Part shown: in pieces, positions 3,253 to 40,486 of the stretch
Layout: every line of letters starts with the position of its first letter
Position numbering within the stretch: the stretch's first letter is position 1
Origin: a virus
Taxonomy: Duplodnaviria; Heunggongvirae; Uroviricota; Caudoviricetes
Length of the DNA: 40,486 nt
Virus record (IMG/VR): IMGVR_UViG_2563366903_000009
Location: 1 to 40,486 of that record
Strand: one strand, 5' to 3'
Notes under the pieces: generated by a model
Databases searched by the model: none
What the model was told of the DNA's origin: nothing
What the model saw: only the letters and a program-made list of their open reading frames with translations
Program-made: the position numbers and the translations under genes

Positions 3253-3808
3253 CCTCCTGAGGGTTGGTAATTAAGGAGTTCTCCACGGGTCAGGTGGAGT
3301 GCGTGCGCCGGACACGGGTGAGCATCCGGCACTGACAGTTTACTGAAAGGATATGTCCCTGAAAAGTCAGGGCATAACGCGAAAGCGCACGGCGAAATTG
3401 GTCTCTCTGTACGGTGTCGTTAAATTTAGTTCGACCGTGCACTTCCGGTTGTGGCACTCCGCGAAATGGCGCGGCGGTAAGTATGGCTGGGGTTTCCTCC
3501 ATTGCTCCAGAAAATGCACCGGGTTGTCAGGTTGACCATACGCTTAAGTGACAGCCCCGCCACAATACCCATGCGTAGTCTTTGGTGGCATCAGTTCTAC
3601 TCCGTGACTGCTCTGCCACCCTTTTTAAAGTGAATTTTGTGATGCGGTGAATGCGGCTATGCGCACGCGGAACAGTTAAAACCGTAAAGTGGTCTTTTAC
3701 GGGGCGTAACGGGCATCCTTCTGTATTCCGGCGTTAATTGTTAACTGGTTAACGTCACCTGGAGGCACCAGGCACTGCATCACAAAATTCATTGTTGAGG
3801 ACGCGATA

Positions 3809-18997: not shown

Positions 18998-19151
18998 ATG
19001 CCTGTTTACAGGTATCGCCATATCAATGGCGGGTCGAGAGAGCCTAATACAATACCCTTTCGGGAAATACGCTCCGCCGTCTGACGCGGTAGTTGAAGCC
19101 CGCCACCCCACTAAGGTGGCAGTCAATACTAAAACGTCAGGAGTCATAATT

Positions 19152-19891: not shown

Positions 19892-20041
19892 ATGTCCATT
19901 TTTCAGATATGGTCGGGTAGCGCGTATACCGAAAAACAGCCGTAAGGCTAAGGATGCGGGCCGAACTTTCGACGGTGTTCAAGTACCCGACCGCCCTGCT
20001 GAACACGGGGTGATCTGAACGAATCGAAAGGACATAAAACT

Positions 20042-22923: not shown

Positions 22924-25900
22924 TTAATCCACTCCCACTTTTTTGTTGTACTCGCGGTTAAACCGATCCACGGCAATTTTCATATCCCGCTCTACCGATT
23001 TCACCATCGCCGACTGTTGCGCCAGACTGAGAGTACTGTCGGCGTAAATGGCATCACGTTGTTTACGCAAATCCTTCAGTCTCTTCCGGGTATCCTGCAT
23101 AAGCCCGTTCATCGACAATTTTCCGTTGTTCTCGTCAATGAATGCCGTTCTTTCTGCACCGGTCAGACTCTTCAGCTCTGCGTGGTACTGCGCAACCTCC
23201 GTCATCCGGTCATACATCTTCTGCTGGTCAGCATACGGCATCACCTCACCCGAAATTTTCCCCAGGAAGGGCACCTGCTGCTCCGGTATATCAATACCGT
23301 TCAGCGATTTCACCGCCGCATCTGTGGTTTTGGAAATGAAGCGCCCTGTCCCTCCGGAGATATAGTCAATCCAGAATTTCAGCGATTCCGGTGTGATATC
23401 CACCGCGCCGGGACGATACTGGCTGCCACCTGAGAACGCATTCAGCCAGGATGCAAACGCCTTGTACGCCTCAGGCGTTGAACGTCTGCCCAGCTGGCTG
23501 TCCGGTTTCGGTGTGCCAAATGGCATGTTCTCCTGGTAAATCTGCGCCCCCATGAAGTTTTCATTCATGGCAAGGTTCGCAAACGGACGCAGAATGGTCG
23601 GCGCTGCATTTTTCAGCAATGCCCCGGACAGTGTTTCCGACGTTTCACTGCCCACAGGACTGAATGCCCCCAGGATACCACCGACAACATTACCGGCAGC
23701 ACGTGAAGCAGTCAGGTCGCCCGCTGCCACACCTTCAGCAGTATGCCCGAGCAGGAAGAAAACGTTGTACCCGTAAGGCAGAGGAATACTCCAGTACTCT
23801 CCGGCCTTGCCCCCGAACACCGATTTCATAATGACGAGGTTACGCTCTTTCACATGAGACGGCACCTTGTCATACCAGTTAACCCCGTCATCATCCTCCC
23901 CCGCAACACTGCGGTTAAGCGAGCCAAGCAGATAACCCGCTCCCACAGCTGCAAGCGCGATTTTCTGCGGTACATTGAGATTCTTCCAGCGAAGGCGCTC
24001 CGGTAACGGCCCGTCGCCATTAAGATGTCCGAGCGTTCTCACCAGGTTTGCGGTCCCCTGAATGCTGGCGTTGGCAAACATATACAGCGAGTTCATCAGC
24101 GCTCCCTGCTCACCACGACGGTTAAAGTTCACCGTCATGTTTTTGGCAAGAGACGCCGCCTGCTGGCGTGACAAACCAGCATCACGGGCGTGTTTATAGG
24201 CAGAAAGACGCAGAGCGTTTTCAACCGCCCCGTTGGCATCCTCGACAAGGTTAAGGAACGAATTCCATGCACCGATACTCTGGCCTTTCCATCCGCCCTT
24301 CGCCAGCGACACAAGGCGATCCATTTCCTTCTGCTGGCCCTCAAGGTCACCCATGTTAAACCAGCCGGTTTTACCTCCGTCCTCAACAAACTCTTTCCAC
24401 ACTTTCTGCCACTGTGCGCCTTTGCCCGTGAGGGTTTTGCCACGCAGACTGGCGTACACGGCTGACATTGCAGAACGGCTGTCTTTGACTACAGCCAGGG
24501 CGGATAAGTTATCCAGCCCTTTCAGTTTACCGTCGCTCCTTCCCTGCTCCGCCTTCAGGTTCATCACCGCCGTCTGCACGTCACGGATGAAGTTACTGAC
24601 CAGAAATTCCGGGTTATACGACGTGTTCACCGTTGCCAGGAAGCGGTTAACTTTCCCCAGCGTACGGATTACGGCGTTACTGGTTTCCGGCCCCATGTTC
24701 TTCATCGCACGCATCAGGCGCGGATCATGAAGTTTAATGTAGTAAGTTTTGCCGTCCTTTTTGGTGGTGAAGTAGCGATCCGCCATCATTGCCATCGGCA
24801 CAGGGCGCTCGACAACTTCGCGAATGGTTTCACCAGTTTCCTGGTCCTTGCGCTCTGCAATCACACGCATTGTATCCGGTCTGTCATCAGTGAATACCTG
24901 CCAGTAATCCTTGTCGGGATTATCCTGTACCAGTTTCAGGAAGGCGTTACCCACTTCATTTTTGCGATTGCGGATCAGCGATTCACTCAAATCCTGTATC
25001 GCCTGAGTGGAAGGAGACTGTGCGCGGGATGCACGCCCCATGGCCTGCTTACTTTCACGCCCGCCGATGGTGAATCCCTTGCCTGTACGTGGCTGTGACA
25101 CCACACCGTCAACATCCTGCCCTTTCAGGGGGACGTAGTAACGGTAGGCTTTCTGCCAGGCATCCACCACGCCGCTCTCTTCCAGTCCTGCCTCACGGAT
25201 AATCTCACGGCGACGGGCCAGCATATCGTCAATAATCCCTGCCAGACGGTCATACTGTGCCTGTTTGCCGCTGTTACGCACACGCTGCATGATTTCCGCC
25301 GCTTCCGCGTTGGTCATCCCCGAACCGCCGTCCGGCATTTTCGGGTTGATTTTCGCAATATGCGCGTTACGTTCCGGCGCGTGACGGGCGTAGAGGTACT
25401 CATCCAGATCGGCCTGCGCAATTTTGTAGTCCGCCAGCAATTTGGCCAGCGGCTGAACGTAGCGCTCCTTCATTACGTTCAGGTCGTTTTCCGCCTTCCC
25501 GTGGAAGAGTTCTTCTGCCATATAAGCGTTGTTACTGTCGTCCACTTTGCCGCCAGTTTTACGGATATTCTCCTGAACAGCTTTCAGCACCTGGAATTTA
25601 TCCTGCATCTGGCGCACAAAACGCGATGCAATAGTCTCTTCCGGTGTCAGACTGCTGGTACGGGAGTAATACGGCCCCTTGCGAATATCCTCAGGATGTA
25701 GTATTTTAAATCCAGAAGAGCCGTTGATGGTGTTCGCCTCGGGCAATTGGAGCCCGACTGCATGAAGCCATTCAGCGGCTTTTTCTTTATTAAGATACAG
25801 CAAAGATGTATCAAGCTGATCCTGCAAAGCACTCCTTTTGTCCTTTCCATAGGCACTGGCAATTTTGTTTATCTCTGCAAATCCATCGCCTTTCACATGG

Positions 25901-28900
25901 GTATGAATTGCAACAATGACAGGATTCCCTTTTGTATCGGTCGCCTGAATTAAAGATACCAACGCATCCGATTCAGTTTTCGAACGCATAACTGCTACCG
26001 GATCTGTCAGAAGTTGAGGCAAATCAGCCAGTGTTTCCACTGACACAAAGTGTTCTCTGATCTCTGGTCTCGTAGCCTTATGCACAACAGATGCAGGCAT
26101 AACCAGTTCAAGATCTGGTGCCCCCAATGCGCGCAAAACACGAGGCGTATCCCCAACTCTGAGCATTTCCCTTCTGGAAACCGATTGTAATCCGGCAATG
26201 CGACGCACTTCTGAAGCAAACTGCTTTGCATCATAGGCGTCAGCCTTAAACGGATCAGGTTTACCACTACGGGAGTACTGAGACGATGCGCCCGCGCCAT
26301 CCTCACGCGGCGTGTAACCTTCCCGCACACGCTGGCCTAACGTACGGATGGTCTCGCGAACAAGTCTGATATCGTTCAGTTCCGTCGGCTTCAGTAACCC
26401 CGTACGACGCAGTACCCCTTTGACCAGGGCAACAACACGCTCCCATGCCGCCACGAATTTATTCGGCTGTTTCTCCGCCATATGTGCCAGAAATTCACCC
26501 GCCTGCACTTCCGGTGATTCCTTACCATAGGACGCATCAACCTTACGCCAGGCTTCACGGATGGTGGCGTTATCACTGTCGCGGGTTTTCAGCACGGTTT
26601 TGATGATCGTCTGATATTCCGCTGGCGTGACAACATGCTCCATGGCATGGTGGATAATCTCGTGACGCAACTTCTCGCGTACGGTCCGCCCGTCAGGGAT
26701 GTTATCCGCCACCAGGACAATTTCACGTTTATCCGGACGATAGAACGCGTGCACCTTGCCGTAACCGTCGAATGATTCACCCGCCAGTGCTTCAGCCTCT
26801 TTCTGTGACTTCACCACGCGGACCTTCAGGTCACTGTCCTTAATGCCACTAATCACGCCACGGGCAACCGCTTCAACCTGCGGGACCGGGCTGCCTTTGG
26901 CTTCCGCACTGCGGTTAACATCCGAAATGAGATTGCCTTCAGGTGTGCGGGTCACGCCCTTACGGGAATAAAACGCAACGCCCTTGTCCGTCTCACGGGT
27001 TTTCAGGGTGCGGAACAGGTGATCGAATGCCTCACGAATGCCACCATCCAGTTCCGCATTCGTCGGATAAGCGTAGGTGTTATCTGTGTTGTGCTCAGGT
27101 GCCTTACGGATATTGACCAGATAATCATTCTCCACGCCAGCCGTACGCGCCTTATCCTGAACATAACGCTCAAAGGCACGTGCCGCCATTTCAACATCCG
27201 TTGACCAGTACGGTTTTGAGCGCACCTCATCGAGAAGAGCTGAACGACGCGGCATGTCACTGTTTTTAATGGCCTCAATGACACCTTTAAACGCGTCGTA
27301 AACCTCCTGACGCACCGGATATTCAGCGTCAACAAACCTGCCGTCTTTAAATACGCGCTTAACACGCCTGGCTTCCGTCATAAAGTCACCACCTGACGTA
27401 ATCTTCCCGTCAGTGGAAACATCATAACGACCAAAATAATTATCCAGTGAATGGAACCATTCGTGCGCCAGCGCACCCGGTCCGTTACCTTTTGTCAGGT
27501 TGATTGCCACCTCACCCGGCTCATAGTGTGCTGCCGCCTTACCCTTACCACGGGCACCAAATGCCAGGCCAAGACGACCGTTCAGGGAAAGCGCTTTTGT
27601 CGGTACATTCAGTACTTCAGCAAGGTCATGCAGCGAGTCATAAGCCCGGTTCAAATCAGCCTGACGACGCGGACCTTCCACGTAGTTACCAAACTGCACA
27701 CCACGAAAACCAAACGCATCGCTGAACTGCTTCGGTGAGACATCACCCTTGCGGCGTTCTGGCCCGGTACGATCGCGGTTGGTGGCGTTACGCTGCTCCT
27801 CACGGGAAATCTCACGCATCTCCTTCACATGACGAACAAGCTCATCACGATGTGAATCAATGTACTTACGCGCATCACTGGCTGACTTAAAGCCACCTCT
27901 CACCCGCATTTTGTTTTTGCCGTAAGCAATAAAAATATCGCCACTGCGGGTATTCCGGTATACGTCAAAGCTGATTTTGTCATCCGGTGACGGTGCTGTT
28001 TTTTCATCACCTTTCGCCTGTGATTTTTCCTCCTGCTCTGCAAACCAGGATTTTGCCTTTGTCAGTAATTCATCCCTGCTTTCCGAGAAAAAGAGATTGC
28101 TCCCCTTATTGTCCTTATTGCGCAGTGAATAAAGTTTCCGTGGCGGATCGTAACGTTTCCCTCCTGCCGCCTGATACACACCGGATACCACCCGATAAGC
28201 AGAAGCCTTGTCTATCTGCGAGGGTGGCAGCGTGCGTAACAGTTGCCATGTGTCCGCGTAACGGGCGGGCATTCTGCCTTCCATCCACTCAGCAAGCCGT
28301 CCGGCAGTCACTTTTCCTTCCAGCATTCCCGCCACACTTGTGCGGATGCTCTTTACACTCTCCACCCACTTCACTGCATTGAGTTTCGTCTTCGCCGGAA
28401 TATCGCTACGATACAGCGCTATCATTGCCAGGGTATCAGCATCGGCACCTTCGTTCGCCAGTTTTGCGTAGTCCGGTTTCGGGAACAGTTTGCTCAGCGG
28501 TTGCGTGACATAATCCCTGTCTTCCAGCGTTTTACCCAGTGTTTCGGCAAGCTGTGCATAACGGTGTTTTGCCGCGCCCTTAATCTCCTCGCCAAAGTCT
28601 TCAATTTTTGCACCACGCGCCTGCTGGTGAGTGCTCGGTTTATCTACCGGCACCGGCACCGGCACCTCAGTATCCGGAACATCGGTTATGGTCTGGCGAT
28701 TATCCCCGGTCTGTCTGCGCGCTTCTGCCTGCTGTGCCAGTTCCGGAAGGGAGTCACGAACCATACGAGGGAGTGATTCAGGATGTGGCATATCAACCCC
28801 ACGCTGTTCAGGTGCAGGAAGTCCTTCACGCACTGGTGCTGTGGCGTTCTGCTCATCCGGTGACGGCAGACCACGACGAACCGGTTCGCTCTCCAGTATT

Positions 28901-31299
28901 TCCCCCTGGCGACCAGCGGCATTTTCCGGTGCCTGCGCACGTCCTTTCTGGAAACTCTGGCCCTTCACCTCACCGGTTGTGGTAAAACGACCACCACGTC
29001 CGGCCTGATTTTCATCCGGCGTACGCGCCACTTCTCCTGGTAACGGATATCCCTGTCCGGGATGAATATCGCCGGGAGCGGGAAGGCGTGGACGCTCAGT
29101 TAACTCCTGTGCTGTCGGACCGGCATCACCTTCAGCCATCTGTGAACGTACAAGCTCCTCTGCCGTCGGCGCGTTGCCACGGGCAAGGCGGGCCTGCACT
29201 TCTGTATCATCCCCCGTGAAACCACGGAATCGCGGGTCACGCATGAACGCGGGCTGCTCCATCGGTTCAGCATCAGCAATACGCTCTCCGTCAGCCAGGG
29301 TGTTAATGGTCTCCGTTGCCACATCTTCAGAGAACGCAGGATTATCCATTTCAACGGCATACTGATTCTCGCCTTTCTTCACTACGGACGGTTTCAGGCC
29401 GGTGGCGCTGGCATTGCGGAAAACATCGCTCCCCAGAGCACTTTTTTCATCCGTGAAATAACGGTTGTCCGGACGCACCTTTTCAATGCGTTCTGCTGGT
29501 CTGGACGCACCACTCCCGTTAATTTCAATACGAACTTCATCCGGATCGCGGAACCGCACCGTCGGGTAAATACTCCCGTCGCCATCATCCGCATTTTCCG
29601 GCTGTGGCTGTGCCTCCGGTCTGGCCTCCTGCTGAGGGCGAAGCACATCACGGATAGCCCGTAACTGCTGCTCTTCAGTATCAGTACGCCCTTCCTTCAG
29701 GCTGAGTTTTCGGTATTCCTCAAGCAGTTCAGGGCGCGGCTTCGCCTTCAGCTCATCCATCACCGCCTGTCGCTTCGCCTGTTCATCCAGTTCATTTAAC
29801 AGCTGGCTGGCGGCTTCCCGGCGATGAACGGCAGACGTGTCTCCCTCAGGTGCCATATCCGCATCAGCATACTGTTCCAGAAGTTGCTCGCGATTCATGC
29901 CCTGCATGGATTCGCGATGCTGTGCCACCGGATCAGCCGGTTCGGGTTGCGGGGCTGCTTCACCCTGCTGTACGACTTCAGCCTCACGCATGGCGGTTTC
30001 TTCTGCGGCCTGACGTTTTCCACGATATCCGGCAACCGCACCGAACGGTGCGCCCATCGCTGCACCAAGAGCGGCTCCTTCGATCGTTGCGTCAGCTACC
30101 CCCTCCCATGGTGATACATCCATTCCGGCAGTCTCACGCAACGTCATATTTTCCTGGTAACGCGAATAGCCGCCCTGCGCCGCATTAATCGTCCCCTGTT
30201 CCGTGGCATTTCTGACAATGCCGCTTTTAACGGTCTTCGCCGTGCCCCGCATCGCCAGATTAAACAACTGAGCATCGCCCAGTTTTGCCGCCATGGCATT
30301 CACAGCCAGCAATTCAGGATCGGTTGCCAGCTGCGCGCGCACCTCATCGGCAACACGCTCTTTTGCCAGATCCATTTTCTGGCGATCAGTAAGCTGTGCG
30401 TGCTGCGGATCTGCATCAATTGACAAAAACGTCTGCTGAAATTTCGGGGACTTCGCCAGCTCAGAGTAATCCGCGTTAAGAACAGAGTCTGCTGCTGCCA
30501 TTGCACTCTGCCCCTGTGCGCTGGCTGAGGAATGGGTGATCAGGCCTGCCTGGAATAAATCCGGCATTTTTTTATCGACAGCTTCTGCTGCCAGTGCGGT
30601 AGCTCTTTCCGGCTGCATCCCTGCCGCAATGTATTTTTTCTCCAGCCCGGCGGTCAGCACTTTTCGCAGAGTGACTTCACCCAGCTTTTTAGTCACACCG
30701 CCTGCAACCAGATCAGGTACAAGCGCACCAATCAGGTTTACACCCTTCGTCAGCAAGACCGCAGAATCATCATAGCCTTCACTCATTGGCGTGTTCAGCG
30801 CACGAACAGCACCCGGCGACATCTGATCTGTCAGCCATTCATCCGAGGCTTTGGCACCATCACTGACTGCCTTGCCTGTGGCCTTCAGACCTTTACCGAC
30901 AGTATCAGTCACCGCGTTTTTCCCTGTTCCATCGGGAATGTTTTTAATCGCATCTCCAACAGAAGGTGGTGCGCCCAGTTCCTTTTGCGTGGAGGAAGGC
31001 GGCATGTAAACATCCGTCATGAAAGACGACAACCCGGCAAGCGTTTTTACAGGATTATTTACAAGTGCATCACCGAGTCCACGGGCCATTTCCCCTGTTC
31101 CCCGGACGGACTGGGCGAAACCTTTACCCATTGTTGGCAATACATCGCCCAGGCTGAACGACGTGCTGTGATCAACAGCGTTCTCCGGGTTGTTGAAAAA
31201 ATCCTGCCAGTAATTTTCTCCCGGCTGCTTAATGTTCAGACTGCTGCGGTTCTGGTTACCCAATTGCGCTTCAGGGCGCTGCTCATCTGAAAAAGCCAT
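22924..31299 (-). CDS. Giant 2,791-aa protein with two HExxH zincin-like motifs; candidate virion-packaged polyvalent protein
   Basis: Single uninterrupted ORF with RBS GGAG before the ATG; HEWFH at aa 1279-1283 (27451-27465) and HEIIH at aa 1546-1550 (26650-26664); acidic/Pro-rich low-complexity region at about aa 430-850; last gene of the minus-strand block. All plus-strand ORFs inside it are antisense artefacts. Confidence 0.8.
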   Translation of the reverse strand: MAFSDEQRPEAQLGNQNRSSLNIKQPGENYWQDFFNNPENAVDHSTSFSLGDVLPTMGKGFAQSVRGTGEMARGLGDALVNNPVKTLAGLSSFMTDVYMPPSSTQKELGAPPSVGDAIKNIPDGTGKNAVTDTVGKGLKATGKAVSDGAKASDEWLTDQMSPGAVRALNTPMSEGYDDSAVLLTKGVNLIGALVPDLVAGGVTKKLGEVTLRKVLTAGLEKKYIAAGMQPERATALAAEAVDKKMPDLFQAGLITHSSASAQGQSAMAAADSVLNADYSELAKSPKFQQTFLSIDADPQHAQLTDRQKMDLAKERVADEVRAQLATDPELLAVNAMAAKLGDAQLFNLAMRGTAKTVKSGIVRNATEQGTINAAQGGYSRYQENMTLRETAGMDVSPWEGVADATIEGAALGAAMGAPFGAVAGYRGKRQAAEETAMREAEVVQQGEAAPQPEPADPVAQHRESMQGMNREQLLEQYADADMAPEGDTSAVHRREAASQLLNELDEQAKRQAVMDELKAKPRPELLEEYRKLSLKEGRTDTEEQQLRAIRDVLRPQQEARPEAQPQPENADDGDGSIYPTVRFRDPDEVRIEINGSGASRPAERIEKVRPDNRYFTDEKSALGSDVFRNASATGLKPSVVKKGENQYAVEMDNPAFSEDVATETINTLADGERIADAEPMEQPAFMRDPRFRGFTGDDTEVQARLARGNAPTAEELVRSQMAEGDAGPTAQELTERPRLPAPGDIHPGQGYPLPGEVARTPDENQAGRGGRFTTTGEVKGQSFQKGRAQAPENAAGRQGEILESEPVRRGLPSPDEQNATAPVREGLPAPEQRGVDMPHPESLPRMVRDSLPELAQQAEARRQTGDNRQTITDVPDTEVPVPVPVDKPSTHQQARGAKIEDFGEEIKGAAKHRYAQLAETLGKTLEDRDYVTQPLSKLFPKPDYAKLANEGADADTLAMIALYRSDIPAKTKLNAVKWVESVKSIRTSVAGMLEGKVTAGRLAEWMEGRMPARYADTWQLLRTLPPSQIDKASAYRVVSGVYQAAGGKRYDPPRKLYSLRNKDNKGSNLFFSESRDELLTKAKSWFAEQEEKSQAKGDEKTAPSPDDKISFDVYRNTRSGDIFIAYGKNKMRVRGGFKSASDARKYIDSHRDELVRHVKEMREISREEQRNATNRDRTGPERRKGDVSPKQFSDAFGFRGVQFGNYVEGPRRQADLNRAYDSLHDLAEVLNVPTKALSLNGRLGLAFGARGKGKAAAHYEPGEVAINLTKGNGPGALAHEWFHSLDNYFGRYDVSTDGKITSGGDFMTEARRVKRVFKDGRFVDAEYPVRQEVYDAFKGVIEAIKNSDMPRRSALLDEVRSKPYWSTDVEMAARAFERYVQDKARTAGVENDYLVNIRKAPEHNTDNTYAYPTNAELDGGIREAFDHLFRTLKTRETDKGVAFYSRKGVTRTPEGNLISDVNRSAEAKGSPVPQVEAVARGVISGIKDSDLKVRVVKSQKEAEALAGESFDGYGKVHAFYRPDKREIVLVADNIPDGRTVREKLRHEIIHHAMEHVVTPAEYQTIIKTVLKTRDSDNATIREAWRKVDASYGKESPEVQAGEFLAHMAEKQPNKFVAAWERVVALVKGVLRRTGLLKPTELNDIRLVRETIRTLGQRVREGYTPREDGAGASSQYSRSGKPDPFKADAYDAKQFASEVRRIAGLQSVSRREMLRVGDTPRVLRALGAPDLELVMPASVVHKATRPEIREHFVSVETLADLPQLLTDPVAVMRSKTESDALVSLIQATDTKGNPVIVAIHTHVKGDGFAEINKIASAYGKDKRSALQDQLDTSLLYLNKEKAAEWLHAVGLQLPEANTINGSSGFKILHPEDIRKGPYYSRTSSLTPEETIASRFVRQMQDKFQVLKAVQENIRKTGGKVDDSNNAYMAEELFHGKAENDLNVMKERYVQPLAKLLADYKIAQADLDEYLYARHAPERNAHIAKINPKMPDGGSGMTNAEAAEIMQRVRNSGKQAQYDRLAGIIDDMLARRREIIREAGLEESGVVDAWQKAYRYYVPLKGQDVDGVVSQPRTGKGFTIGGRESKQAMGRASRAQSPSTQAIQDLSESLIRNRKNEVGNAFLKLVQDNPDKDYWQVFTDDRPDTMRVIAERKDQETGETIREVVERPVPMAMMADRYFTTKKDGKTYYIKLHDPRLMRAMKNMGPETSNAVIRTLGKVNRFLATVNTSYNPEFLVSNFIRDVQTAVMNLKAEQGRSDGKLKGLDNLSALAVVKDSRSAMSAVYASLRGKTLTGKGAQWQKVWKEFVEDGGKTGWFNMGDLEGQQKEMDRLVSLAKGGWKGQSIGAWNSFLNLVEDANGAVENALRLSAYKHARDAGLSRQQAASLAKNMTVNFNRRGEQGALMNSLYMFANASIQGTANLVRTLGHLNGDGPLPERLRWKNLNVPQKIALAAVGAGYLLGSLNRSVAGEDDDGVNWYDKVPSHVKERNLVIMKSVFGGKAGEYWSIPLPYGYNVFFLLGHTAEGVAAGDLTASRAAGNVVGGILGAFSPVGSETSETLSGALLKNAAPTILRPFANLAMNENFMGAQIYQENMPFGTPKPDSQLGRRSTPEAYKAFASWLNAFSGGSQYRPGAVDITPESLKFWIDYISGGTGRFISKTTDAAVKSLNGIDIPEQQVPFLGKISGEVMPYADQQKMYDRMTEVAQYHAELKSLTGAERTAFIDENNGKLSMNGLMQDTRKRLKDLRKQRDAIYADSTLSLAQQSAMVKSVERDMKIAVDRFNREYNKKVGVD

Positions 31300-36684: not shown

Positions 36685-37962
36685 TCAGCTTAACCTGCCT
36701 ATGCGAACAGCCAGGCGTCCGTTCTGGTCATAAACTTCAATTTTATCATTGCGGATCACCAGCCCAACATTCTGATTAGAGTAACGAATTGTCAGTTGCC
36801 CCTGCGACGTAACACTAAAAAGGCCACCAATATTCAGGTTACCCTGAGAATCAACCTGAAAGTTCCCGTTCTGAATAACAGCACTCCGGATAACAGGCGA
36901 CGTGATACTTACCCCGGCTTTTACTTCATCTGCCACAACCTTCCGCGACACCAGTGTTTCAATCACCGCGTCATAAATCATCGCTTTGGGAATAACAACT
37001 TTTCCACCAGAGACCGCAAACGGATAGGCGGTGTTATCCGGATTATTCGGGTCAAAGACAAACAGCTGTGACGCAGAAATTGCAACCTGGCTTACCGGCT
37101 TCCCTTCACCATCTTTTCCTGCAACAATTCCGATCCCCGCAGTAATTCCCTCAACACCGGTCTTTTTTGACCACATGGCCAGGAAAGCTTCACCGCCTTC
37201 TTTATCCACCTTAGTGATGCGCTCATTTACCTTATTAAGCTCTTCACTGGTTGACTTATTCATCCCCGTAACACGGGTATCAATACCACCGATAGTTTTC
37301 AGTGTTTCTTCCCTGAGATTACCCACAACTTCCGTCGTCTCGATTGCCGCGTCCTTTACTGCCTGCCCCTGAGCATTCTTTATTTCCTTACGCAGCTCTT
37401 CCACCACCGGTGACTTTGCAGCCTCCTCCTTGATCTGGTCAATAATGGCCTGAACGCTTATCTGGGTTTGTGCGGGAGTGCCTTTTACCGCGTTCCATGG
37501 CCCTTTCACTCCCGCTGCATTAACAAAGCGTATCCAGTAGAATCCCGACCAGCCCGGATCAACCGGATCAACCGGATCACCGTAAACCTGCCCCGGCGTC
37601 GTGGCAACCAGCACCGCATCCGAAAGGTCATCCTCCGTACCCCGCCAGATTTCAGTCAGTGAATGACCGCGATAATTCGGCATATCCCATTCAAGCAGTA
37701 CCGAGCCAAATCCCCCTGTAGCCTTAAAATTCTGCGGCTTCGATGGGAAATCAACGACCATCAGGGAACTGTCAATCTCGATCCCCGGATTCAGGGCGTA
37801 TGCGGCACCTCCTGAAGCCCGGCGACGGGCAAGCTTCAGACCGACCAGCTCTTCACGGGTTACAAAAGCATGACGACCATCGCCACGTTGTCCTGTCCCT
37901 ATCTCCATATTTTCCACAACCGCAGATAAATCCTTTCCTGCGCGCCACGGTTTTTTTGTCAT
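36685..37962 (-). CDS. Tail fiber / host-specificity protein, lambda J C-terminal-like
   Basis: Segment ...AMWSKKTGVEGITAGIGIVAGKDGEGKPVSQVAISASQLFVFDPNNPDNTAYPFAVSGG... parallels the lambda J region ...[52 protein letters not shown]... (recalled); fibronectin-III-like stretch upstream. Confidence 0.6.
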   Translation of the reverse strand: MTKKPWRAGKDLSAVVENMEIGTGQRGDGRHAFVTREELVGLKLARRRASGGAAYALNPGIEIDSSLMVVDFPSKPQNFKATGGFGSVLLEWDMPNYRGHSLTEIWRGTEDDLSDAVLVATTPGQVYGDPVDPVDPGWSGFYWIRFVNAAGVKGPWNAVKGTPAQTQISVQAIIDQIKEEAAKSPVVEELRKEIKNAQGQAVKDAAIETTEVVGNLREETLKTIGGIDTRVTGMNKSTSEELNKVNERITKVDKEGGEAFLAMWSKKTGVEGITAGIGIVAGKDGEGKPVSQVAISASQLFVFDPNNPDNTAYPFAVSGGKVVIPKAMIYDAVIETLVSRKVVADEVKAGVSITSPVIRSAVIQNGNFQVDSQGNLNIGGLFSVTSQGQLTIRYSNQNVGLVIRNDKIEVYDQNGRLAVRIGRLS

Positions 37963-39584
37963 ACCGGCAGCTCCGACATCGATGTACTGAGTGTGATACG
38001 TTCAACCTGACCAAAACCAGAAACCAGCATCTGCCAGTTTTGCCCGGTTGCAGCAGGTAACCTCACAACGCGTCCTGAAAAGCTTCCTGGTGCAAGGTGA
38101 ATCACCGGCACATCATCAGCCAGCACAGTAATTCCCACCCGCTCTGGCGTCGGAGACTTCACCCTGAGACAGGAAAAAGAGGTTCTTTCCGGAAGGGAAA
38201 ATACCTTTGAATGCCATCTGATTGTCGACGGCAAACTCCCTCCGGCAATCGCAGACATGTTTTGTCCTGATACCACCCGCATAACATCGTTAACCAGGTC
38301 AACACATGCGCAGTCAAACGGCGTACTGAGGTACCGGATATCCATGTTCGCCGGGCTGAAGACAAACACATCCTGCTTACCATCCGGTTTCGTGTAACAG
38401 GCAATGTATTCACCACGCCAGGGATAAGCCACAATGGAGGCCGGATTAAACTGACTCTGCCACTGTTCCGGTGAAATAATCTGTTCCGTCGCCAGAGCGG
38501 CATTACCGTTTGCATCAACAGACACCAGGCCATTTGTTCCTGCATACAGCACAAAGCCCTCCATCGCCACCATACTTCTTCGGCTCAGGCATGCCTGCAT
38601 GGAAGGAATTCTGGAGCCAGAAATTGTGGAAGGCGATACACCACTGAACAGATAAGGCTCACCCTTTGTCGCCACCACCAGTGATGTTCCGAGCGGACAG
38701 ATAGCCACAATATCTTCTGCCGTCGTGTGACGATTCACTTCCGGCCATGCATACGGCAGATACGCTTCCGAAAACATCACTTCATTACCGGCAAATCCGG
38801 CGGCAATACCATTCGCCATCAGGCAAAGGCCTGTCATATTCTCCGGCGGCGGCAGGTAATCCCATGTCGCCAGCGAAGGTCCAAGATTTTTCGCCGGTAT
38901 TTTATCCGTGTAACTGAGCACGGATACATCCAGTTCAGCCACGAGTAAAAAATCGGCTTCTCCTCCCCCTGATGCAGAACGATAAATACGACGACGTTTA
39001 ATACTGGCATTCTGCAATGGCACCGGAGCCAGCGTCAGTTGTACCGCAGTTCCCGGAGTACGGAGTGTTACCTCCAGAGACGCCGGACCTGGCGGACCTT
39101 CTTCACCATAATCTGAGACAAAGGTTTCCGTATAAAACCGGGTTTCATCATCATTCGGGTTATCATCAGAAACATCACCGCCCTGCTGAACAGTACAGAC
39201 AGGAGCTGTCGTCGGCGCGGGGATCCCCAGACGATACGATGATGTCGGGTGATTCCCGTCCCCTTTTGTGGCAATGGTCGCATCCGTCACTTTAGGAAAA
39301 CGCCCGTCAGTGTAGTAAATACGCCCGTGGGGGTCCTGAGCGATCGGACTGCGGATCACATCCACCACATCCGGCCATGCAAACCAGAAATCGTCACGGT
39401 AATGAAAAATTGTTTTTGGCTTAATTGTGAATGTTTTCTCAACCCCGGATATCTGACGTTCTGGTGTAATAACACCAAACCGGAAATGGCAGTCCTCCGC
39501 CAGTACAGCGGAATGCTCGGGCAGCATGGATGTCACAACGCGCGGCATCATCCCACGCATCGTGGTGATATCGATATAGGGCAT
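37959..39584 (-). CDS. Hypothetical tail-associated protein (about 541 aa)
   Basis: ATGA-coupled to the J-like gene; start chosen at MPYIDITTMRG (AAGGA 7 nt upstream) inside track ORF 37959-39662. Confidence 0.5.
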   Translation of the reverse strand: MPYIDITTMRGMMPRVVTSMLPEHSAVLAEDCHFRFGVITPERQISGVEKTFTIKPKTIFHYRDDFWFAWPDVVDVIRSPIAQDPHGRIYYTDGRFPKVTDATIATKGDGNHPTSSYRLGIPAPTTAPVCTVQQGGDVSDDNPNDDETRFYTETFVSDYGEEGPPGPASLEVTLRTPGTAVQLTLAPVPLQNASIKRRRIYRSASGGGEADFLLVAELDVSVLSYTDKIPAKNLGPSLATWDYLPPPENMTGLCLMANGIAAGFAGNEVMFSEAYLPYAWPEVNRHTTAEDIVAICPLGTSLVVATKGEPYLFSGVSPSTISGSRIPSMQACLSRRSMVAMEGFVLYAGTNGLVSVDANGNAALATEQIISPEQWQSQFNPASIVAYPWRGEYIACYTKPDGKQDVFVFSPANMDIRYLSTPFDCACVDLVNDVMRVVSGQNMSAIAGGSLPSTIRWHSKVFSLPERTSFSCLRVKSPTPERVGITVLADDVPVIHLAPGSFSGRVVRLPAATGQNWQMLVSGFGQVERITLSTSMSELPV

Positions 39585-39740
39585 AGAAATTCCTTTGACT
39601 GCTTCAGGCTTAAAAATCAGGGGATTTATGATGGAATTCGCTAAAATCGCGATCGGTATCACTGCAACAGAGTGTTGCTATGATATTCTGGACAAGACGT
39701 AACAACTCACTAATTGTTATCAAACGTCTTTCTTCTGGTC

Positions 39741-39766
39741 GGGGAGCATGTTGCTCCCCTTTTTTT
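39741..39766 (+). terminator. Plus-strand intrinsic terminator inside the minus-strand late block
   Basis: GGGGAGCA tgt TGCTCCCC (39741-39759) followed by T7 (39760-39766). In the minus orientation the stem is preceded, not followed, by the homopolymer. Confidence 0.55.
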
Positions 39767-39947
39767 ACTGCATTACCACCGCAGCTGTAGCAACAAGAGC
39801 CAGCACACCACCAAGCCACACAAACAGCATGAAGCACATTGCACCTGTGGTGTAACGTTTTCTTCCGATTGTCCGGCATCTCTCTTTATTCATCATCTGC
39901 ACCTTCTGAACTATCAGAAGATTCTGCGCATCCGGCAGGACCGCCAT
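39765..39947 (-). CDS. Small membrane peptide (43-60 aa) with basic N-terminus and C-terminal TM
   Basis: ...MMNKERCRTIGRKRYTTGAMCFMLFVWLGGVLALVATAAVVMQ*; likely start at 39896 (AAGGTG 3 nt upstream); stop overlaps the T-run of the plus-strand terminator. Confidence 0.45.
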   Translation of the reverse strand: MAVLPDAQNLLIVQKVQMMNKERCRTIGRKRYTTGAMCFMLFVWLGGVLALVATAAVVMQ

Positions 39948-40417
39948 CAGGCACCAACAAGCCGTCTGACACTCACACCATACAGTCCGTTTTTTGCCAT
40001 TCCCGTATACAGAAAGGTATTCACCGTCTTTGTGTTAATACCCATCTCACTGGCAAGGCGGCAGGGTCTCGACTGGCGGTAGACATAACCGAACATCACC
40101 ACCATCTCTGACATCGTCAGCGGGCGGGCAGCACTGTTATACGTCCAGACGCCGTTGTGTATGGCATCACTTATCTGCTCATCATCACGGAGCAACTCCG
40201 CATCCAGTTGCAGAAAATGACGCCCCTGGAACATGCAGCGCATCAGTCTGCCCAGCAACGTATCACAGATTATCAGCCAGGATTCGTCAAAGTCCGGGAT
40301 ATAACGGCGGTTCTCCGGCAGGAAAAACTCCCTCGCCAGTATCACACTGTGTTCCTTCAGTAACGCCTGCAGACCATACTCCAGATAGCGATTCCTGGTA
40401 GCCAGAATCACCTTCAT
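39947..40417 (-). CDS. LuxR/GerE-type HTH transcriptional regulator
   Basis: C-terminal LTMSEMVVMFGYVYRQSRPCRLASEMGINTKTVNTFLYTGMAKNGL fits the LuxR-type HTH pattern; start chosen at MKVILATRN (AGGAAGG RBS) inside track ORF 39947-40447. Confidence 0.6.
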   Translation of the reverse strand: MKVILATRNRYLEYGLQALLKEHSVILAREFFLPENRRYIPDFDESWLIICDTLLGRLMRCMFQGRHFLQLDAELLRDDEQISDAIHNGVWTYNSAARPLTMSEMVVMFGYVYRQSRPCRLASEMGINTKTVNTFLYTGMAKNGLYGVSVRRLVGA

Positions 40418-40486
40418 CGCAGCACCTTCCTGTTTTTTATGCCCCATGAAAAACGGCAGACCAGAGTCCTGCGCCTGCCGTCATAC

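Follow-up and report, generated by a model that had tools for sequence, protein, structure and literature searches.

A cargo cassette of Eib prophages with a putative LuxR-class regulator, a small membrane peptide and a terminator bordering a predicted antisense RNA

At the right-hand end of a 40,486-nucleotide (nt) tailed-phage sequence (IMG/VR record IMGVR_UViG_2563366903_000009, analysed over its full length and referred to here as the window) lies a short block of minus-strand genes in which an earlier note, made from the DNA alone, had recognized a LuxR/GerE-type regulator, a small membrane peptide and an opposite-strand terminator hairpin. Re-reading of the sequence together with a list of open reading frames (ORFs) and a terminator scan recovers all three as described. 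Our reading, to which we assign a probability of roughly 0.55 as a whole, is that they form the downstream two-thirds of an eib/orf-156/orf-60 cargo cassette carried in the late or tail regions of Escherichia coli prophages, encoding a LuxR-class regulator (ORF-156) and a membrane peptide (the orf-60 product) and bordered by a terminator, at which an antisense RNA of ~290 nt lying over the start of an L0124-like virion gene would end. Here the cassette sits in a 933W-like short-tailed prophage, directly upstream of that virion gene.

The identity of the locus follows from its close relatives. In a megablast search of phage records, the region 39500-40486 is 98.1-98.4% identical to phages PhiR12_3, PhiR5_2 and GER2 and to prophage P-EibD; the match to AF151675 (P-EibD of E. 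coli ECOR-9) amounts to 98.1% over 987 nt, and the neighbouring genes are in common. AF151675 carries, in this order, orf-191D, a stem-loop, eibD, a second stem-loop, orf-156D, orf-60D and an L0124-like gene, and the window shares the order eib, stem-loop, orf-156, orf-60, L0124-like gene without material difference. PhiR12_3 and the chromosome of strain G1/2 are arranged as P-EibD, and in both the NCBI pipeline labels the two small genes 'hypothetical protein'. Judged by near-identity and synteny, the region is the orf-156/orf-60 pair of Eib prophages, and, extrapolating from PhiR12_3 and strain G1/2, the eib stop codon should lie ~20 nt past the window end. AF151675 gives no function for orf-156 or orf-60, and the records also name orf-156A/C and orf-60A/C of P-EibA and P-EibC (ECOR-9). 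With these ORFs deposited in GenBank as early as 2000, the locus as such is not new. A literature search found no paper that names orf-156 or orf-60, the original P-Eib prophage papers (Sandt & Hill) lying outside its coverage, and recent Eib papers discuss neither ORF.

In every prophage context recovered, a YadA-anchor (Eib-like) gene is followed by a homologue of ORF-156 and then by the peptide gene. The contexts comprise 933W-like tails (the window and loci L018-L020), lambda-like ends beside btsSR (L013-L016), the ydf region (L021), the trp region (L022), PhiR12_1, P-EibA and P-EibC. The earlier note placed the block at the head of the tail genes, which agrees with its next minus-strand neighbour, a virion gene of the L0124/ECs1232 type that starts at 39584, beyond a 180-nt spacer after the orf-60 stop. 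This gene belongs to PHROG 511, 'internal virion protein', and its homologue is ECs1232 of the Shiga toxin (Stx) 2 phage Sp5, the deletion of which abolished both plaque formation and lysogenisation (PMC5155283). In most Stx phages the cassette is decayed and the hairpin intact: Sp5 (L005 2640-3101) and 933W (L017) retain an N-terminal fragment of ORF-156 (ECs1230/L0123), a 33-aa C-terminal fragment and the last peptide codons, and phi296-type phages (L003 4211-4357) carry a cor-like lipoprotein gene together with a frame-shifted peptide remnant. In P-EibA and P-EibC (L007 1341-5348; L008 2366-6373), orf-60 is followed by 92 nt without a terminator and then by eaaA or eaaC, which encodes a 1335-aa classical autotransporter, so that regulator and peptide lie there between two surface-protein genes. 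The same types of prophage also have genes of the Hok/Gef family in other parts of their tail regions (L013 1424-1564, L014 1665-1805, L018 10007-10126), either following lom or between J and the gene of the side tail fibre, and are thus already equipped with classical type I toxin genes outside the cassette.

For the regulator, the earlier note had assumed a gene extending to 40447. The corresponding minus-strand frame is real and is the longest form of this ORF (39947-40447, 166 aa), but homologue alignment, PHROG 6585 and the GenBank annotation all place the start at the ATG at 40417, which gives a protein of 156 aa. PHROG 6585 is a family of unknown function, and a search of 5.8 billion proteins returned 44 clusters in which all named sources are E. 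coli, all labels read 'hypothetical protein' and no Pfam domain occurs. By sequence, ORF-156 belongs to a narrow orphan family, apparently restricted to E. coli mobile elements. A 21-member profile of the family compared with PDB sequences nevertheless matched proteins of the LuxR class only, namely VqmA three times and GerE (E 0.06-0.2), and the alignment sits on L-T-x-S-E ... E-M-G-I-x-x-K-T-V, the helix-turn-helix (HTH). Alignment of the family with GerE by hhalign gave a probability of 82.8% over 42 columns, with a GerE sequence that agrees with the part aligned in the PDB profile search; the same family profile gave no meaningful alignment with full-length NarL. The AlphaFold2 model of ORF-156 (predicted local distance difference test score, pLDDT, 77; predicted template modelling score, pTM, 0.72) consists of an N-terminal beta-alpha domain with strands at residues 2-6, 24-27, 47-51 and 67-72 and a C-terminal domain whose helices at 102-112, 118-124, 129-142 and 150-155 form an HTH arrangement. 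Its 15 best Foldseek matches are to FixJ, RcsB, VpsT, EvgA and NarL (E 1.3e-3 to 4e-2).

Because three independent if weak signals, the profile match, the GerE alignment and the predicted fold, agree, we tentatively assign ORF-156 to the LuxR class; it is probably a very divergent, phosphorylation-independent regulator of that class. With the NarL/FixJ family and its phosphorylation-independent relatives (RcsB, VpsT, EvgA, FixJ, DevR) it shares a predicted receiver-like alpha/beta part and a four-helix HTH. In contrast to NarL/FixJ regulators it is ~50 residues shorter, its receiver is truncated and, where these have an acidic pair behind strand 1, it reads T7-R8-N9; Asp52 is retained and nearly invariant in the homologue alignment. 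ORF-156 has neither a signal peptide nor a membrane segment. Upstream of its gene come ~30 nt, then the eib terminator stem-loop (40453-40481) and, beyond the window end, the 3' end of eib, which encodes a trimeric autotransporter adhesin that binds immunoglobulins; the regulator's promoter is, as had been remarked, not visible. Since only ~30 nt separate the terminator from the ORF-156 start, orf-156 is probably carried on transcripts that read through the eib terminator or on late transcripts. A homologue with 55% identity (P0031) occurs as a solitary gene, with neither adhesin nor peptide, in a chromosomal island (L009-L012, 6001-6495), where hpaBC is adjacent, PerC-family genes lie downstream and ~1.1 kb without called genes lies upstream.

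Upstream of seven eib-like genes from different prophage contexts, invariant sequence blocks are held in common (regions compared: L001 2815-3190, L007 7356-7760, L008 8714-9085, L013 4385-4770, L018 2880-3272, L021 2600-2980). They include the perfect palindrome TGTATACA at ~25-33 nt before the ATG, a CRP-like site TGTGA-N6-TCACA, a GGAATATCCTCATG-like block, which we take to resemble loosely an RcsAB box, and GGAATATCC. A search of the window found these boxes absent from the region of orf-156 and orf-60. We consider the blocks candidate operators for ORF-156 or for host regulators.

The second gene encodes a peptide of 43 aa (MMNKERCRTIGRKRYTTGAMCFMLFVWLGGVLALVATAAVVMQ) that matches PHROG 9340, a family of 43-residue proteins, at 9.6e-30, over residues 18-60 of a 60-aa frame. 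This longer version is the open frame extended upstream to the ATG at 39947, where it overlaps the orf-156 stop (TGATG). The stretch before the MMNK start is variable or absent in the homologues, some of which begin there with MKQAN..., MSSSGN... or MEQEK..., and since they start at the equivalent position, the real product is taken to be 41-43 aa long, with a Shine-Dalgarno sequence GAAGGTG ~5 nt before the ATG at 39896. The product has a basic N-terminus followed by ~24 hydrophobic C-terminal residues, as originally described, and R/K-K/R-Y-T-T/A-G-A-M-C-F-M-L-F-V-W-L-G-G is near-invariant among 22 homologues. Across the 31-codon core of six divergent loci, the proportion of synonymous differences (pS) ranges from 0.43 to 0.78 and that of nonsynonymous differences (pN) from 0.04 to 0.22 in 15 pairwise comparisons; by this measure the peptide is under clear purifying selection and hence a genuine protein. 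The 43-aa start lies 50 nt past the orf-156 stop here, and in homologues the two overlap (ATGA in L021-L023, or TGATG); the abutting or overlapping stop and start suggest co-translation from one mRNA. The Pfam and NCBIfam libraries contain no family, toxin or other, that matches the peptide, and a sigma-70 consensus scan of 39300-40486 found no promoter-like site for it. We infer a membrane peptide of the tail-anchored type, with a function tied to the regulator or the adhesin and not that of a toxin. In the safA-ydeO operon of E. coli, a small membrane protein is co-transcribed with a regulator. The orf-156/orf-60 pair likewise joins a single-pass peptide of <70 aa with a transcription factor in one operon, but there is no sequence similarity and both gene order and regulator class differ, so that the comparison is an analogy only.

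The third element, the hairpin, consists of GGGGAGCA-TGT-TGCTCCCC (39741-39759) followed by T7 (39760-39766) on the plus strand, with eight base pairs (six G-C) and a 3-nt loop. It is the strongest of four terminator-like sites in 39300-40486, against 1.2 +/- 1.0 in shuffled sequences. The T-run overlaps the peptide stop, as had been noticed before: the stop TAA occupies 39767-39765 on the minus strand, and the last two T and the next A are its complement. On the minus strand the hairpin is preceded by an A-run and followed by GACCAGAAGAAAG without a U-tract, so that it could terminate plus-strand transcripts only; no minus-strand terminator follows orf-60. In sequence terms the hairpin has the features of an intrinsic (Rho-independent) terminator and is predicted to act as one. 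It stands beside the peptide stop, after a short A-run, in five of six contexts, and its T-run is always opposite to the peptide strand. The base of the stem, GGGGAG/CTCCCC, is constant, and the upper stem changes in a paired manner (CA/TG, T/A, CT/AG, CTG/CAG), so that in the variants GGGGAGCA/TGCTCCCC, GGGGAGT/ACTCCCC, GGGGAGCT/AGCTCCCC and GGGGAGCTG/CAGCTCCCC both sides are altered and the stem is kept: a one-directional terminator maintained by compensatory change. The convergent gene dinI of lambda-like prophages has its stop 9-20 nt before the hairpin, which is evidently the dinI terminator there; the spacer of the window (39588-39740) contains no dinI remnant at the DNA or protein level. 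Homology of the window to the lambda-like cassettes sets in within the hairpin (query position 255, window 39754); that to Stx phages extends across the L0124 gene, the spacer and the hairpin as far as the peptide remnant. We therefore see in the hairpin the 3' edge of the eib/orf-156/orf-60 cassette, facing outward, where it would stop transcription that comes in convergently.

A plus-strand RNA that ends at this hairpin, postulated in the earlier note, is most likely real. Cappable-seq of the enterohaemorrhagic E. coli (EHEC) strain EDL933 lists an antisense start at 1374386(-) within gene 6945 (1374279-1375904), detected in stationary-phase LB, M9 and acid (PMC10469882, Table S6). Gene 6945 is the EDL933 homologue of L0124. 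EDL933 position 1374364 corresponds to position 2440 of Sp5 (L005), and L005 corresponds to the window minus 37059 over 100% identical sequence, so that the EDL933 start falls on window position 39477. This is exactly 7 nt after TGTAAT, itself preceded by TGg, and the resulting extended -10 element TGgTGTAAT (39462-39470) is the candidate promoter of the RNA; the sigma-70 scan mentioned above, which does not cover the extended -10 type, gave no site on either strand. The terminator scan found no other plus-strand terminator between 39477 and 39741. The predicted RNA (fold z-scores -3.4 to -5.5) would therefore measure ~290 nt and be complementary to L0124-like codons 1-36, the ribosome-binding site and the 5' leader. 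It was previously held to be antisense to the peptide gene. As it arrives from lower coordinates, it is instead antisense to the start region of the virion gene and reaches only the stop codon of the peptide. Its 3' module comprises a stem-loop (39694-39730), a U-rich linker and the terminator with U7, which is the usual architecture of Hfq-binding RNAs.

Published Hfq data point in the same direction. In strain Sakai, UV cross-linking and analysis of cDNA (CRAC) ranked the ECs1231...ECs1232 intergenic region 27th among Hfq-cross-linked intergenic regions (Tree et al. 2014, PMC4104026, Table S1B), with 81,206, 6,030, 70,478, 146,246 and 3,140 reads on one strand in five samples and zero on the other. 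The flanking genes ECs1230 and ECs1231 are absent from the top-100 table of coding sequences (CDS) of that study (PMC4104026), and the signal is thus concentrated in the spacer. In the CRAC table, the 'anti-sense' column contains Spot42, SsrA, CyaR, MicA, ChiX and the Q-stx2A stretch, and the 'sense' column RyhB, SroC, OxyS and AsxR. We take Spot42, SsrA, CyaR, MicA, ChiX and the PR' transcript (between Q and stx2A) to lie on the forward genome strand and RyhB, SroC, OxyS and AsxR on the reverse strand. These known RNAs identify 'sense' as the reverse genome strand and, the late genes of Sp5 running forward, the CRAC reads as the plus strand of the window. The mapped 5' end and the Hfq cross-linking both come solely from homologous EHEC prophages, with which the window agrees completely or almost completely in the promoter, the first ~190 nt and the terminator.

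The predicted RNA can be compared with the Hfq-binding small RNAs (sRNAs) AsxR, AgvB and EcOnc that EHEC prophages carry at moron sites (PMC4104026). Like these, it lies at a cargo site of a lambdoid late region, is convergent to the late operon, ends in a U-tract terminator and has Hfq cross-links over its counterpart region in Sakai, where the CRAC signal of the ECs1231-ECs1232 region is comparable with that of the AsxR region. In contrast to these RNAs of 51-60 nt, it would be ~290 nt long and fully antisense to the virion gene start region, which makes a cis mode of action the simplest reading. It is absent from the list of named RNAs in Tree et al. 2014 (PMC4104026), as we suspect because its peak lies <100 bp from an annotated CDS. 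A search with Rfam, at gathering thresholds over the whole window and permissively over 39300-40486, gave nothing credible in this region. The sRNA families Pas, AsxR and AgvB were considered and rejected, their loci being different (near Q and the lysis genes). Trans targets of the 3' module within the window were likewise rejected: its predicted pairing with the starts of orf-156, orf-60 and L0124 (-12.4, -19.0 and -8.8 kcal/mol) is within the background of -17.1 +/- 3.9. A 24-aa plus-strand ORF at 39628-39702 (MMEFAKIAIGITATECCYDILDKT, Shine-Dalgarno AGGGGA) was weighed as the gene served by the terminator. It lies inside the predicted antisense RNA and is probably non-coding; its C-terminus is unconserved, the Sp5 allele giving a different product of 18 aa, and the Sakai RIBOseq small-gene tables have no entry at its coordinates.

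Two further promoter-like elements were noted on the same strand. A second extended -10-like element, TGcTATGAT (39676-39684), lies in the allele-specific part of the spacer and would give an RNA of ~75 nt (~39691-39766) with an sRNA-like shape (fold z-score -5.0 for 39693-39767). In EDL933, a second plus-strand start, 1374077(-), present in seven of eight conditions, falls 22 nt beyond the T-run (window 39751-39787 region, compared in 933W and Sp5). Its -35 element TTGCTC lies in the 3' arm of the hairpin and its -10 element reads TATCAT in Sp5 and TACCAC here, with the key last T lost. Such an overlap of terminator and promoter could act as a stop-and-restart point in some alleles.

Taken together, the cassette might work as follows. 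ORF-156 would bind DNA and control the adhesin or other cargo genes, the operator-like blocks upstream of eib being its obvious candidate targets, and the peptide may act with it at the inner membrane. The terminator would stop whichever convergent transcript arrives, that is, the dinI mRNA in lambda-like prophages and the ~290-nt antisense RNA in the 933W-like backbone, and could in this way shield the cassette from antisense transcription. The antisense RNA, probably Hfq-bound, would cover the L0124-like translation-initiation region. Given that no minus-strand terminator follows orf-60, transcripts could read from the cargo into the L0124-like gene, and in the lysogen the RNA might damp L0124-like expression from such transcripts. 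In a bolder version, which strikes us as unlikely, ORF-156 and the peptide would form a dedicated, horizontally mobile control unit for Eib-type adhesins: ORF-156, gated by the co-translated peptide, would be a phosphorylation-independent LuxR-class factor and possibly an auxiliary partner of a host NarL/FixJ regulator such as RcsB, and an Hfq-bound antisense RNA at the border would insulate the virion genes from cargo transcription in the lysogen.

Several findings weigh against our reading. For the regulator, no Pfam or NCBIfam model matches ORF-156 at E<=1, which places it below the curated threshold of GerE/LuxR_C (PF00196), and the LuxR/GerE type named in the earlier note thus holds at the level of predicted fold and weak profile matches and not at that of curated families. 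A HMMER search of 1.84 billion cluster representatives with the ORF-156 profile found 37 proteins at E<=0.001, mostly short fragments, and from this small number we infer that no link to the large LuxR family exists by sequence. The pLDDT of the C-terminal domain (63-75) is moderate and the lowest of the model. For the terminator, P-EibA and P-EibC have the peptide gene without a hairpin and with the eaa gene next, so that it is not obligatory for the cassette. For the RNA, the transcript data stem from EHEC prophages with a decayed cassette and not from an intact orf-156/orf-60 locus; the meaning of the CRAC columns was deduced here and is not stated by the authors of the table, from which, moreover, the reads are not assignable to an exact RNA, and the second EDL933 start on the same strand may contribute to them. 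Antisense starts are very numerous in the Cappable-seq set, and 1374386(-) appears in three of its eight conditions, all of them stationary-phase. Finally, 39666-39740 represents a different allele from that of Sp5 and 933W (~60-65% identical), with only the promoter, the first ~190 nt and the terminator in common; in other Stx phages the allele of the window is found at 96-97% identity.

Several of these points could also be explained if the hairpin were a passive boundary, namely a dinI-type terminator carried in by recombination of the cassette, and the plus-strand RNA functionless pervasive antisense transcription. The abundance of antisense starts and the restricted occurrence of 1374386(-) would fit this explanation, as would the start of homology to lambda-like cassettes inside the hairpin, the position of the dinI stop just before it in those prophages, the difference of the RNA body between alleles and the lack of trans-complementarity above background. 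What speaks against it is the persistence of the hairpin: together with the preceding U-rich stretch it occurs in 178 phage records, and its Sp5-type allele in 351 of 5,426 complete E. coli genomes, also in those whose cassette genes are decayed. The high rank of the region in the Hfq-CRAC data, on a par with the AsxR region, and the Hfq-dependent type of 3' architecture argue in the same sense. On balance we hold a passive boundary to be somewhat unlikely, while granting it appreciable weight.

Dedicated helpers of trimeric autotransporters exist, and ORF-156 might be a receiver-like protein-protein adaptor without DNA-binding activity that serves, together with the peptide, the biogenesis or surface display of the Eib adhesin. 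The strict linkage to YadA-like adhesin genes, the missing Pfam, NCBIfam and HMMER connections to LuxR proteins and the low model confidence of the HTH part are compatible with such a role. Yet the best four PDB profile matches and the best 15 Foldseek matches are all to DNA-binding proteins of the LuxR class, and the profile alignment falls on the recognition helices (L-x2-E-M-G-I-x2-K-T-V-x2). In addition, ORF-156 lacks a signal peptide or membrane segment, and its homologue P0031 occurs without adhesin or peptide. We therefore regard an adaptor function as quite improbable.

The earlier note had also suggested a type I toxin-antitoxin-like module, in which the 43-aa peptide would be a membrane toxin repressed by an overlapping plus-strand RNA. 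Among type I systems, RNA pairs that converge and overlap at their 3' ends are familiar (fst/RNAII and txpA/ratA, for example), and with these the region shares a small hydrophobic peptide gene that meets a convergent RNA at a hairpin. The peptide is small (<60 aa), conserved, basic at one end and hydrophobic at the other; its mRNA, lacking a terminator of its own, would have a 3' extension fully complementary to the ~290-nt RNA. An RNA from the second EDL933 start would run antisense into the orf-60/orf-156 remnants of 933W and Sp5, and a weak plus-strand terminator-like site lies inside orf-60 (39839-39855). In contrast to the known pairs, the hairpin serves one strand, the RNA that ends at 39766 shares no more than the stop codon with the peptide gene, and the second promoter is degraded here in its -10 element. 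The convergent partner is not conserved (dinI, the gene of a CxxCxxCC protein, or none in P-EibA and P-EibC), so that no antitoxin RNA is co-inherited. The peptide gene abuts or overlaps the regulator stop in an operon, with no promoter-like site found and no long folded leader, and no toxin family of Pfam, NCBIfam or PADLOC type among the libraries searched matches its product. As, moreover, hairpin and RNA persist in Stx phages in which the peptide gene has decayed, we consider a toxin-antitoxin module very improbable.

Preferring the reading of a regulator-peptide cassette with a border terminator, we see its interest mainly in the adhesins it accompanies. Eib proteins confer immunoglobulin binding, serum resistance and chain-like adherence on commensal and Shiga-toxin-producing E. 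coli, and their expression is known to be conditional, depending on static growth, oxygen and the IbrAB island. ORF-156, as a cryptic LuxR-class protein, and the orf-60 product, as a membrane peptide under selection, are testable candidates for the regulation of eib. The unnamed RNA that is predicted to lie antisense to the start of an essential virion gene is carried by hundreds of Stx-phage genomes and abundantly represented in published Hfq data; it could have a bearing on phage production or on the insulation of prophage cargo from the late genes. New here are the assignment of ORF-156 to the LuxR class by fold, the 43-aa product under selection, the linkage of the three genes across prophage types and the new partner assigned to the terminator, an unnamed and probably Hfq-bound RNA antisense to an essential virion gene. 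Taken singly, the elements are of familiar kinds, and the results fill an annotation gap rather than overturn current concepts; they would gain in significance if regulator and peptide proved to be a dedicated Eib control unit or if the RNA controlled phage production. The coordinates of all elements are collected in Table 1.

Table 1. Elements of the eib-linked cassette and its border in the window, listed from high to low coordinates except for the RNA and its promoter.
Feature	Position (nt)	Strand	Basis
Stem-loop ACGGCAG...CTGCCGT followed by TTTTC, intrinsic terminator of upstream eib	40453..40481	-	stem_loop in AF151675 (1233-1261); inner part by terminator scan
Shine-Dalgarno sequence AGGAAGGTG of orf-156, 5 nt before ATG 40417	40423..40431	-	direct reading of the sequence
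orf-156, 156 aa, receiver-like N-terminal and LuxR/GerE-type HTH C-terminal domain, putative regulator	39947..40417	-	fold model, weak profiles
orf-60 core, 43 aa, basic N-terminus, hydrophobic C-terminal helix	39765..39896	-	PHROG 9340, alignment, pN/pS
Intrinsic terminator, 8-bp stem, 3-nt loop, T7	39741..39766	+	scan, fold, conservation
Extended -10 element TGgTGTAAT inside the L0124-like gene, predicted promoter	39462..39470	+	sequence and EDL933 start
Predicted cis-antisense RNA, ~290 nt, likely Hfq-binding	39477..39766	+	start mapped from EDL933, CRAC in Sakai, fold z-scores
L0124/ECs1232-type virion gene, 541 aa, likely cis target of the antisense RNA	37959..39584	-	PHROG 511, synteny

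Three observations concern other parts of the window. A single ORF of 2791 aa occupies 22924-31299 on the minus strand, at the distal end of the minus-strand block after the virion genes. Two Rfam matches to sRNA-Xcc1 lie ~0.9 kb apart on the plus strand, at 19028-19112 and 19911-20000, with 53.0 and 67.7 bits against a threshold of 53. A match to the DicF RNA at 3570-3621 (+) scores 58.9 bits against the Rfam gathering threshold of 48, and may be part of another, separate prophage segment in the left-hand part of the window.

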